Of a stretch of 60,761 nucleotides of DNA, positions 52,307 through 53,763 are shown in pieces. The notes under the pieces are model-generated. The model was not told the origin of the DNA and did no database searches. It saw nothing but the letters and a program-made list of their open reading frames with translations. Made by a program: the position numbers and the translations under genes. Position 1 is the stretch's first letter, and every line of letters starts with the position of its first letter. The DNA comes from Clostridia bacterium (GTDB lineage: Bacteria; Bacillota; Clostridia; Oscillospirales; CAG-272), in the NCBI GenBank assembly GCA_024404505.1, contig JAKSPU010000003.1, positions 1-60,761 of the forward strand, read 5' to 3'.

Positions 52307-52525
52307 TCACTCGGCGTCAGCCGGCACGTCGGCCGGGGACGCGGGGAAGACCTTTCTGACGGCTTTTTCAAGCCTGACTCTTTCCATGACCATATCGCGC
52401 CCGCAGGCCTCGCACACGACGCGGACCTCGCTGCCGACGCGCATCACCTTGAATCTTTTGTTCCCGCAGGGATGCGGCTTTTTCAATTCCAGAATATCCC
52501 CCGGATTCATCCTGATGATCTGCAT
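52307..52525 (-). CDS. DUF951 family small protein
   Basis: 72 aa. GDILELKKPHPCG...VVCEACGRD zinc-ribbon-like pattern typical of DUF951; GGAGGA RBS. Confidence 0.8.
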   Translation of the reverse strand: MQIIRMNPGDILELKKPHPCGNKRFKVMRVGSEVRVVCEACGRDMVMERVRLEKAVRKVFPASPADVPADAE

Positions 52526-52693: not shown

Positions 52694-52722
52694 TTGACAA
52701 AAACGCAAAAAAATGATATACT
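52694..52722 (+). promoter_or_regulatory. SigmaA-type promoter for tRNA-Leu
   Basis: TTGACA (52694-52699), 17-nt spacer, TATACT (52717-52722). Confidence 0.7.
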
Positions 52723-52756: not shown

Positions 52757-52841
52757 GCGGGTATGGCGGAATTGGCAGACGCGCCGGATTTAGGATCCGG
52801 TTCCTCACGGAATGCAGGTTCAAGTCCTGTTACCCGCACCA
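52757..52841 (+). tRNA. tRNA-Leu (anticodon TAG), CCA encoded
   Basis: Hand-folded cloverleaf: acceptor GCGGGTA/TACCCGC, anticodon stem CCGGA/TCCGG with loop TTTAGGA, long variable arm TTCC-tcac-GGAA, T-arm GCAGG-TTCAAGT-CCTGT, and 3' ACCA. Confidence 0.9.
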
Positions 52842-52888
52842 ACAAAAAAACATCTTTTGTCTACCAAGACAAATGAGGCTTTTTACAA

Positions 52889-53059
52889 CGAAATTTGCCC
52901 TGCGGGCAAGTGAAATAGCTTCGCTGTGAAATATTTGCTTCGCAAATGTGAAATGTTCGCTGACGCGAACGTGGCAAATTTCATTTCACGTCGAGGCGGA
53001 GCCGAGACATTTCACAATGCCGAAGGCATTATTTCACATCGGCGGAGCCGATATTTCAC
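52889..53059. repeat. Mirror-symmetric array of 7 short variable-stem hairpins separated by the heptamer GTGAAAT (left half) / ATTTCAC (right half)
   Basis: GTGAAAT at 52910, 52926 and 52948 (degenerate GTGgcAAAT at 52971). ATTTCAC at 52983, 53009, 53031 and 53053. Hairpins: TTGCCC-tgc-GGGCAA, AGC-ttc-GCT, ATTTGC-ttc-GCAAAT, GTTCGC-tgac-GCGAAC, GTCgaGGC-gga-GCCgaGAC, AATGCC-gaa-GGCATT, ATCGGC-gga-GCCGAT. Confidence 0.85.
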
Positions 53060-53066
53060 TTATCAT

Positions 53067-53108
53067 GCCCCCGATACCCGTCAGCAGTCGGAAGTCGAGG
53101 GCTTTTTT
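53067..53108 (+). terminator. Candidate intrinsic terminator closing the tRNA-Leu/hairpin-array transcription unit
   Basis: GCCCCCGA (53067-53074) pairs with TCGAGGGC (53095-53102) with one mismatch and a 20-nt loop, followed by TTTTTT (53103-53108). Confidence 0.45.
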
Positions 53109-53120
53109 GCGCAAAACCGG

Positions 53121-53149
53121 TTGAAAAGTTCACGAAATTGTGTTATAAT
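53121..53149 (+). promoter_or_regulatory. SigmaA-type promoter (extended -10) for the AT-rich orphan gene
   Basis: TTGAAA (53121-53126), 17-nt spacer ending TGt, TATAAT (53144-53149). Confidence 0.65.
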
Positions 53150-53182: not shown

Positions 53183-53671
53183 ATGAAGTATAAAAAAGAA
53201 CGCGGACAGTTTCGGAAAATGAGAAGACTGTTAATAAATATTGAGAAAATTATTCCGTATGAGAATACCGAAAGAAGCTATGAGCATTTTCACGTTCCGT
53301 CCGATCCGTTTATTTCATCTCCCAAAACAAGTGGCAAAATAAAAACAACATTCTGCAAAGCATGGCTGAAAAAAACAGTCGAAATCATGGAGCAAAAGCC
53401 AAAATCGTTGCCATTTTGCAAGGTGGTTTCTTGCATTGTTGAGAATGATCTTTGGAGTTCGCAGATTATTATTTTCTACGATGAAGAATATTATAACAAC
53501 TTTTGGAAAAGGGATACGTCGGATCAAACTTGGGTTCCAATTTCAACCCCAAAATCATTTGCTTCTGAACGAAAAATAATCACTTCTTTGAATGAAAAAG
53601 GGTATTTTGAAAAAATAAATGATGGAGAAACATTAAGCACATCTGTCATATGGTTTTATGGTGATATATAA
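53183..53671 (+). CDS. Hypothetical protein, AT-rich orphan gene (possibly DUF3916-like)
   Basis: ATG at 53183 lies 7 nt after GGAGG. 162 aa. About one-third GC in the first 100 nt by hand count, against GC-rich flanks. Pattern HFHVP...LWSSQIIIFYDEEYYNNFWKRD...WVPI resembles my memory of Bacillus DUF3916 proteins (unverified). Confidence 0.6.
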   Translation: MKYKKERGQFRKMRRLLINIEKIIPYENTERSYEHFHVPSDPFISSPKTSGKIKTTFCKAWLKKTVEIMEQKPKSLPFCKVVSCIVENDLWSSQIIIFYDEEYYNNFWKRDTSDQTWVPISTPKSFASERKIITSLNEKGYFEKINDGETLSTSVIWFYGDI

Positions 53672-53721: not shown

Positions 53722-53763
53722 TACCTTTTGGTCTGTTTTTGTTTGAAAATATACCTTTTGGTC
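53722..53763 (+). repeat. 12-bp perfect direct repeat TACCTTTTGGTC x2 upstream of the lipid-kinase gene
   Basis: Copies at 53722-53733 and 53752-53763 (15 bp with one mismatch), 30-bp period. Confidence 0.7.

Follow-up and report, generated by a model that had tools for sequence, protein, structure and literature searches.

A two-armed Gut-1 array behind a tRNA-Leu gene in a Clostridia genome, and its putative link to PF05635 proteins in relatives

Analysis of a 60,761-nt stretch of a Clostridia bacterium genome (assembly GCA_024404505.1, contig JAKSPU010000003.1; hereafter the window) revealed that the ladder of seven hairpins lying just behind its tRNA-Leu(TAG) gene is, with near certainty, one complete and canonical copy of a two-armed form of Gut-1, a family catalogued in Rfam (RF01706) and of unknown function. 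The two-armed form has not been described before. In an Rfam scan, the left arm of the ladder matched RF01706 on the plus strand with 65.8 bits (E = 1e-12) over model positions 1-77, which is the full model, against a gathering score of 50 bits, and the right arm matched it on the minus strand with 49.4 bits, slightly below that threshold (coordinates in Table 1). A second pair of Gut-1 matches in the same genome (74.6 and 44.9 bits), 72% identical to the window array, is found on contig C24 directly behind a tRNA-Glu(CTC) gene and the terminator of that tRNA. The first-pass annotation of the ladder had listed a novel structured noncoding RNA among its candidates; the Rfam comparison assigns it instead to a catalogued, dispersed family.

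Gut-1 was introduced by Weinberg et al. 2010 (Genome Biol 11:R31, PMC2864571) in a one-sentence note on 43 members found in the human gut only, which were rated as certainly RNA on the basis of covariation and as not cis-regulatory; beyond this original description, the one further paper found to mention the motif uses it as a folding benchmark. The window array shares with Gut-1 its occurrence in gut Clostridia and a left arm that fits the covariance model end to end, with three GUGAAAU-separated hairpins whose stems vary and covary. The published account, in contrast, is of one arm in human-gut environmental sequence, a probable noncoding RNA, and includes neither the mirrored arm nor the complementarity between leader and center, the polarity relative to tRNA terminators, the heptamer variants or the PF05635 neighbor described below. 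The flanks of the original seed alignment already hold mirrored halves, in the variant GUGAUAU/AUAUCAC, and one seed has an upstream tRNA, features that are not discussed by Weinberg et al. 2010 (PMC2864571).

The anatomy of the ladder was borne out in full, all seven stems and loops being as the first-pass annotation had drawn them. On the plus strand of the window, perfect GTGAAAT heptamers start at 52910, 52926 and 52948 and perfect ATTTCAC heptamers at 52983, 53009, 53031 and 53053, a total of seven packed into 150 nt; the earlier tally thus reads as three perfect GTGAAAT with a degenerate leader heptamer, ACGAAAT (52888-52894), and four ATTTCAC. The window as a whole contains 14 heptamers on both strands, compared with a mean of 6 and a maximum of 13 in shuffled sequences, and the clustering is far beyond chance. 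Genome-wide (2.95 Mb, GC 60.7%) the heptamer occurs 232 times, with only two such clusters, each in the order +++----. Every spacer between heptamers is a flush hairpin, and no two of the seven stems are alike. Stems measure 3-6 bp on the left versus 6-8 bp on the right, the loops are TGC, TTC, TTC and TGAC on the left and GGA, GAA and GGA on the right, and successive heptamers are spaced by 16, 22, 35, 26, 22 and 22 nt. The leader (52887-52899, AACGAAATTTGCC) and the center (52973-52985, GGCAAATTTCATT) form an inverted repeat with 92% complementarity, and the region folds with a z-score of -6.8. The 86-aa open reading frame (ORF) across the array matches no Pfam family, in agreement with the earlier view that it is not credible.

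To place this copy among its relatives, loci were taken from 200 genomes of the same family, from named metagenome-assembled genomes (MAGs) and from metagenomes, and 125 unique arrays were parsed, their orientation being set by leader-center complementarity. The commonest layout, three left and four right heptamers (60 of the 125), is that of the window array. Family-wide, the left hairpins have stems of 3-5 bp and T..C triloops, and the right hairpins have stems of mostly 7 bp with G..A tri- or tetraloops. Of 117 arrays, 51 have a same-strand tRNA or transfer-messenger RNA (tmRNA) gene no more than 110 nt upstream of the left arm, the tRNAs representing 15 amino-acid identities, and the mirror arrangement, with the tRNA or tmRNA next to the right arm, occurs in none of 111. 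The module is a polar, noncoding element of about 175 nt; it is always the left arm that is turned toward the tRNA or tmRNA 3' end and its flush terminator, and the right arm faces a downstream, promoter-bearing small gene. The leader-center complementarity, 12-14 nt long, covaries across heptamer variants at other loci; the helix that it would form competes with hairpin 1 and is present in only 4 of 60 minimum free energy (MFE) folds. As a separate observation, a conserved motif of ~70 nt follows many arrays on their right flank (L008, L009, L012, L013, L016, L018, L020, L033, L165), with a T-loop-like GTTCGA, then TCATACGCAAAA and CCGAAAATATCTTTTTCGTAG, then sequence resembling GACAGAAAAAAG, and the same motif separates tandem arrays. 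At L008 (about 1330-1500 and 1720-1900), a structured stretch of ~150 nt (AGGGCTCGAAGGGGAAGCGGTAGTGAATTGACAGTCCGG...) with a tRNA-Trp-like end (...GCCCCTGCCA) occurs twice around the array and may be an unusual tRNA-like gene.

The distribution of the module is broad and patchy. Gut-1 matches were found in 119 of the 201 genomes of the family searched, and the highest load in one genome is 34 matches, or about 17 arrays; many matches lie at contig ends. Named carriers are gut MAGs of Clostridia, Oscillospiraceae, Ruminococcaceae, Acutalibacteraceae and Christensenellaceae. Copies in at least 15 other genera match the window array along its entire length with 83-88% identity, and they lie behind tRNA-Gln, behind tRNA-Tyr or behind no tRNA at all. 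In 11 congeneric species, no array follows the orthologous tRNA-Leu(TAG) gene (90-94% identical), and other sequence is found in its place. Membership in a catalogued family together with absence from the locus in these congeners, the two outcomes that had been named beforehand as refuting, means that the ladder is neither a novel noncoding RNA nor tied to tRNA-Leu(TAG). The module is multi-copy, patchy and evidently horizontally spreading in gut Clostridia, and is not a locus-specific regulator of tRNA-Leu. Outside Clostridia, pattern matches are mostly unrelated tandem repeats. Genuine single-arm arrays of GTGAAAT plus hairpin do occur in Akkermansia MAGs (L039, L044, L100), and a full two-armed array lies beside a tRNA on a contig labeled Bacteroidaceae (L038); these reflect either cross-phylum spread or mis-binned contigs.

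The strand on which the hairpins fold was addressed with statistics from 131 unique left-arm and 233 unique right-arm hairpins. Their many differing stems argue for selection on intra-strand pairing, as the covariation among the seven stems of the window, already recognized in the first-pass annotation, does in miniature. Read on the tRNA-sense strand, right-arm stems contain 88 G·A/A·G versus 2 C·T/T·C mismatches (p about 7e-24) and 27 G·T versus 9 A·C (p = 0.004), and the G·A pairs typically come two in a row, the GTCgaGGC/GCCgaGAC hairpin of the window being an example. Selection on the right arm therefore acts on a fold of the tRNA-sense strand, which excludes pure duplex recognition and symmetric cruciforms but is compatible with sense RNA and the sense DNA strand alike; for co-directional genes, the sense strand is presumably the lagging-strand template. 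A C-G pair closes the loop in 108 of 123 right-arm hairpins, and the right-arm tetraloops are of the form GNNA, the third base being free to vary (A 19, C 17, T 15, G 5), and are therefore not GNRA. Loops of the cGNAg and cGNNAg types are notably stable in DNA, which is a hint rather than a test. No such asymmetry exists in the left arm (7 G·T, 10 A·C). Folding of each arm on a strand of its own, as the mirrored loops might suggest, was rejected on this ground and on the unequal stem lengths of the arms, and a single sense strand is the simpler reading. By the same difference in stem length, the two halves are not equivalent, and the earlier description of them as one unit arranged head-to-head does not hold.

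The two arms agree in their heptamers. The heptamer variant is concordant between arms in 117 of 125 arrays, and a single genome holds GTGAAAT, ATGAAAT, ATGATAT and GTGAAGT arrays, each with its matching mirror. Among MFE folds of canonical arrays, 45 of 60 contain at least two heptamer rungs, with registers that shift, and single deviant heptamers are mostly left uncompensated in the partner rung, with few compensated cases (L096, L023, L018). The ladder of serial four-way junctions envisaged in the first-pass annotation is thus thermodynamically possible according to the predicted folds, with rungs forming in most of them, and is without support from register-specific compensation. Concordance kept over the whole array and not over defined rungs is consistent with one reader shared by all copies of the word, or with promiscuous arm-to-arm pairing, and is at odds with a fixed stack of four-way junctions.

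A candidate for such a reader is suggested by the neighborhood of the arrays in relatives. Across the 201 genomes, 89 carry both the array and a PF05635 gene, 30 the array only, 19 the gene only and 63 neither (odds ratio 9.8, p = 4.5e-13, a statistic that ignores phylogeny). A PF05635-like ORF lies downstream on the same strand of 19 of 110 arrays and upstream of none of 105, and in many relatives a promoter follows the right arm, its -35 element TTGAAA abutting the last ATTTCAC, and is itself followed by the PF05635 gene. The neighbor gene matches PF05635 with E = 6e-10, and its nearest solved relative is 2RLD (E = 5e-23), an entry with five chains. Viewed from the gene, of 40 PF05635 genes sampled in the family, 31 have at least 300 nt of upstream sequence, and all 31 are preceded by heptad repeats. 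These take the form of mirrored hairpin arrays with many heptamer variants in about 21 cases and of three to four contiguous tandem heptads with a period of 7 in the other 10. In two of the three contiguous cases checked (L339 and L346), the heptads lie between the predicted promoter and the start codon. The words of the contiguous type (L339, L340, L343-L346, L349, L355, L369, L376) differ from gene to gene, for example AATGCAG, CAATTGA and TTCTCAA types, and two-armed arrays at L352, L360, L365, L370, L372 and L374 use ATGAAGC/GCTTCAT, GTGATGC/GCATCAC, AATGAAGA/TCTTCATT, ATATCGC and others, the one at L365 lying behind a tmRNA gene. The RF01706 model probably misses such variant-heptamer arrays.

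Close relatives of the window array do carry the downstream PF05635 gene. A PF05635 profile search of the present genome gave no match, and the window array falls outside the PF05635-linked group, its downstream gene being a DUF3916 gene that sits where many relatives have PF05635. Since 30 of 119 array-bearing genomes, this one included, have no PF05635 gene, the array can persist without it. The protein-binding array proposed in the first-pass annotation thus finds indirect support in relatives and no PF05635 partner in this genome.

Our preferred interpretation, which we offer tentatively, is that the array is a polar, horizontally acquired module of heptads and hairpins that folds on the sense strand and in relatives displays its heptads to a PF05635-type reader, the copy in this genome being an orphan because the genome is without a PF05635 gene. 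In this proposal, the flush hairpins would serve to display the repeated 7-nt words along a folded single strand, either an RNA made by reading through the terminator or the unwound sense strand of the DNA, and the words would be putative docking sites for a small, ring-forming PF05635 protein (Avd-like, or '23S rRNA intervening-sequence', type). Agreement of the heptamers between arms would reflect the cognate reader or promiscuous arm-to-arm pairing. The window copy and its C24 paralogue would be orphans acquired horizontally behind a tRNA terminator and abutting an unrelated DUF3916 cassette, where they probably serve at most as a passive structured spacer. A broader extension, which we regard as possible and hold more loosely, is that Gut-1 arrays and contiguous tandem heptads alike are the cognate nucleic-acid sites of PF05635 ring proteins, with one 7-nt word per subunit on a folded single strand, a word variant proper to each cassette, and mobile cassettes parked behind stable-RNA genes.

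Two known systems offer partial parallels. TRAP is an oligomeric ring protein that reads evenly repeated short words in the trp leader RNA, and the present loci may be analogous in that a short word is repeated beside the gene of a small oligomeric protein, with contiguous PF05635 heptads apparently in the transcribed leader. Here, however, the word is of 7 nt, separated by hairpins, mirrored and, in the array type, upstream of the promoter; the binding is putative, and PF05635 is a four-helix bundle and not the TRAP fold. PF05635, the family of the neighbor gene in relatives, includes Avd of diversity-generating retroelements and the 23S rRNA intervening-sequence proteins; its members are known beside stable-RNA genes and act as nucleic-acid-binding cofactors. 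Unlike the Avd systems, the array loci showed no reverse transcriptase, template repeat or variable repeat, and PF05635 is absent from the window and its genome.

Several observations weigh against the interpretation that we prefer. The gene is adjacent to only about 17% of the parsed arrays, a quarter or so of the carriers do without it, and the co-occurrence statistic takes no account of phylogeny. Heptads lie upstream of the PF05635 promoter in array-type cassettes and apparently in the leader in the contiguous type, and a single mode of action must cover both placements. A strong terminator precedes the array and no promoter does, which speaks against an RNA form; conversely, such features as G·U and tandem G·A pairs are more typically found in RNA than in DNA elements, and the left arm shows no strand asymmetry. 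Finally, both copies in this genome retain perfect stems, which would be unexpected in decaying relics unless their arrival was recent.

If PF05635 proteins do read the heptads, Gut-1 would not be an autonomous small RNA (sRNA), and PF05635 would gain a testable ligand. Since 2010, Rfam has listed Gut-1 with a single sentence of description and without a function, and PF05635, common in bacteria, is equally unexplained outside diversity-generating retroelements. That the catalogued motif is half of a polar two-armed module, that this module travels between genera and settles after tRNA terminators, and that heptads precede the sampled PF05635 genes turn two orphans into one testable pair. For the window alone, the array is an orphan copy of modest interest, and the region should not be annotated as a novel sRNA, an origin, a parS site or a CRISPR-like array.

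The strongest competitor, which we consider doubtful, is an autonomous or trailer-derived structured RNA, in which read-through of the tRNA terminator yields a sense RNA of about 230-270 nt that ends at the downstream hairpin T2, forms 7-bp GUGAAAU/AUUUCAC rungs and acts as a stable 3' trailer, sponge or scaffold. Consistent with this are the rating of Gut-1 as certainly RNA on covariation (Weinberg et al. 2010, PMC2864571), the tolerance of right-arm stems for G·U and tandem G·A, which is confined to the sense strand, the fixed sense polarity of the module behind genes, the presence of the plus-strand terminator T2 after the array both here and at C24, and some single-arm arrays with a stop codon or terminator before them and a terminator after them (L028, L014). 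The recurrence of at least two rungs in predicted folds and the fold z-score of the window point the same way. Rung registers vary, however, heptamer deviations are mostly uncompensated, and the right-arm tetraloops are GNNA rather than GNRA; absence from the orthologous locus in 11 congeners and near-identity across genera fit a mobile module better than a housekeeping sRNA. For a sponge of the CsrA-decoy type, raised in the first-pass annotation, there was no observation in favor.

Against a trailer RNA there is also the hairpin T1, which stands flush between the tRNA and the array. This small hairpin (52851-52878 with its A-tract and T-run), which the first-pass annotation had noted for the better T-run on its minus strand, is the two-way intrinsic terminator of tRNA-Leu itself. 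Hairpins of the same A-tract/stem/T-run design occur within 0-5 nt 3' of nearly every tRNA gene among the 26 found in this genome, and near copies of T1 are present on its contigs C24, C188, C192 and C228. As the tRNA's own terminator, T1 separates the tRNA from the array. The tRNA promoter, judged strong in the first-pass annotation, indeed matches 11 of 12 consensus positions, and a promoter scan passed none inside or before the array. The heptamers were also considered as promoter elements; their spacing resembles that of -35 and -10 boxes, and they lack the A that is essential as the second base of the -10 hexamer. All 26 tRNA genes encode CCA, so an encoded CCA does not set array-linked tRNAs apart and says nothing on retro-insertion at mature CCA ends; T1 is in the native terminator style. 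Several tRNA-terminator hairpins of this genome have the core CTTTTGTCTACCAAGACAAAAG in common.

Less probable is a selfish dispersed palindromic repeat, like repetitive extragenic palindromes (REPs) and their bacterial interspersed mosaic element (BIME) and REPIN arrangements or like miniature inverted-repeat transposable elements (MITEs), that inserts behind terminators without a dedicated host function, the neighbor genes being hitch-hikers or co-targets of the same safe-harbor sites. The multi-copy state, tandem duplications and enrichment at contig ends would follow naturally, as would the position always just after a terminator T-run, the presence or absence of the array at otherwise homologous T1-T2 junctions of this genome, the high identity across genera, and the orphan copies in genomes without PF05635. 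With the REP/BIME and REPIN elements of Proteobacteria, the array shares its multiplicity and extragenic placement after the ends of transcription units, in inverted doublets, and to this extent only the REP/BIME-like candidate of the first-pass annotation holds. In REP elements, the stem is fixed for each family and a RAYT (Y1) transposase is required, whereas here every stem differs, only the 7-nt linkers being constant, and the two genomic copies are only 72% identical. A search of the 201 genomes for PF01797 (RAYT/Y1) found no match here and none in high-copy genomes, and no association with the array (odds ratio 1.8, p = 0.086), and mobilization of the RAYT/IS200 type was rejected on these grounds. 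The outer ends (CAACGAAAT... and ...ATTTCACTTAT) have only the heptamer in common, unlike the terminal inverted repeats of a MITE, and no flanking direct repeat or other target-site duplication was seen in the window, at C24 or in the closest relatives; nor is the tRNA 3' end duplicated downstream. The strict polarity and the maintained rules for loops and closing pairs imply selection beyond propagation.

Binding of a dimeric or multimeric protein to the array in B-form, as to an operator or iteron array of the ParB box-A or omega-heptad kind, is improbable. The heptamers do run first direct and then inverted, with variants that agree between arms, and in PF05635 cassettes the array stands immediately upstream of the -35 element; the heptamer also resembles the P1 parS box A and chromosomal parS half-sites. 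Yet duplex recognition would select for neither palindromic spacers nor covarying stems nor strand-specific mismatches (G·A 88 versus C·T 2), the variable heptamer spacing (16 to 26 nt) does not keep helical phase, and stems of 3-7 bp are presumably too short for cruciform extrusion. Omega-type and ParB box A duplex heptads were accordingly rejected on the variable spacing and the strong strand-specific selection on stems. A CRISPR array was likewise rejected, as the first-pass annotation had done: the constant part is of 7 nt, the orientation flips and the spacers are palindromic, where CRISPR requires repeats of at least ~23 nt and unique, non-palindromic spacers, and the sole Rfam CRISPR match (52480-52511) lies outside the array and below threshold.

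The least probable alternative, a relic of an integrase attachment (att) or recombination site at the junction with the AT-rich islet, has in its favor the placement of the array, with a tRNA 3' end before it and an AT-rich gene of foreign appearance after it, the tandem tRNA 3'-end copies behind the tRNA-Leu(TAG) of several congeners, which would mark a recombination hot spot, and the T-loop-like right-flank motif of other loci, but it founders on the lack of any downstream copy of 11 nt or more from the tRNA tail, both in the window and at most tRNA-linked loci, the absence of an integrase gene nearby, the occurrence of arrays behind tRNAs of 15 amino-acid identities and behind non-tRNA genes, and the presence of the T2-promoter-gene cassette elsewhere in the genome without this array. 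In the congeners concerned (L199, L200, L201, L204, L206), the tRNA is followed by two to three tandem units of ~130 nt that resemble decayed copies of tRNA-Leu. Each unit closes with 18-26 nt repeated from the tRNA 3' end (GTCCTGTTACCCGTACCA) and then a terminator hairpin, and the units hold one hairpin-plus-ATTTCAT unit of the right-arm type.

Table 1. Position of the array and of the features that surround it in the window.
Feature	Position	Strand	Basis or remark
tRNA-Leu promoter, TTGACA / 17-nt spacer / TATACT, with TG	52694-52722	+	11/12 consensus positions; context, outside the module
tRNA-Leu(TAG), CCA encoded	52757-52841	+	ARAGORN; Rfam tRNA 59.2 bits; anchor gene upstream of the module
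T1: A-tract, 12-position stem (10 paired), loop ACCA, T-run	52844-52884	both	two-way intrinsic terminator, flush with the tRNA
Left arm (Rfam Gut-1 motif proper)	52886-52959	+	leader ACGAAAT, hairpins 1-3, three GTGAAAT; RF01706 match
Hairpin TTGCCC/GGGCAA	52895-52909	+	hairpin 1, left arm
Hairpin AGC/GCT	52917-52925	+	hairpin 2, left arm
Hairpin ATTTGC/GCAAAT	52933-52947	+	hairpin 3, left arm
Hairpin GTTCGC tgac GCGAAC	52955-52970	+	hairpin 4
Hairpin 4 plus center piece gtGGCAAATTTC	52955-52982	+	inverted repeat with the leader
Right arm	52978-53061	-	four ATTTCAC, three longer hairpins; RF01706 minus-strand match, folding statistics
Hairpin GTCgaGGC/GCCgaGAC	52990-53008		right arm; contains tandem G·A
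Hairpin AATGCC/GGCATT	53016-53030		right arm
Hairpin ATCGGC/GCCGAT	53038-53052		right arm
T2: imperfect hairpin, then TTTTTT	53067-53108	+	fold prediction; recurs upstream of other AT-rich genes
Downstream promoter, with TG	53121-53149	+	11/12 consensus positions
DUF3916 gene, AT-rich	53183-53671	+	PF13079, E = 1e-21; GC 34-37% vs ~60% elsewhere in the window

Downstream of the array, the hairpin and T-run of T2 are present in the predicted fold as the first-pass annotation had proposed, and they are the 5' boundary of the downstream gene cassette rather than the end of the array. A module of T2 followed by a near-consensus promoter recurs before small AT-rich genes at C195:2560-2648, at C228:236-338 and on C24 (locus L002, about 1690-1800 and 2150-2230), and these modules look like a family of promoter-bearing gene cassettes. 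What precedes them varies: at C195 it is a degenerate array of another heptamer variant (ATGAAGA/TCTTCATT type), at C228 a single hairpin-plus-CTTCATT unit only, and one T1-T2 junction on C24 is without any array. The 12-nt word TACCTTTTGGTC is repeated at the 3' ends of these cassettes, immediately ahead of a T1-type hairpin (window 53722-53763; L002 about 2030-2090; C228:830-850), and may mark the cassette boundary.

Two further repeat clusters were observed in this genome. One, at C193:2250-2580, consists of TGTGGAA/TTCCACA and TGTGGATAA words that resemble DnaA boxes, and may be a replication origin region. The other is a local hairpin repeat at C33:1270-1400, where a unit of ~37 nt with the hairpin GTGGGGCtctGCCCCAC occurs four times in tandem.

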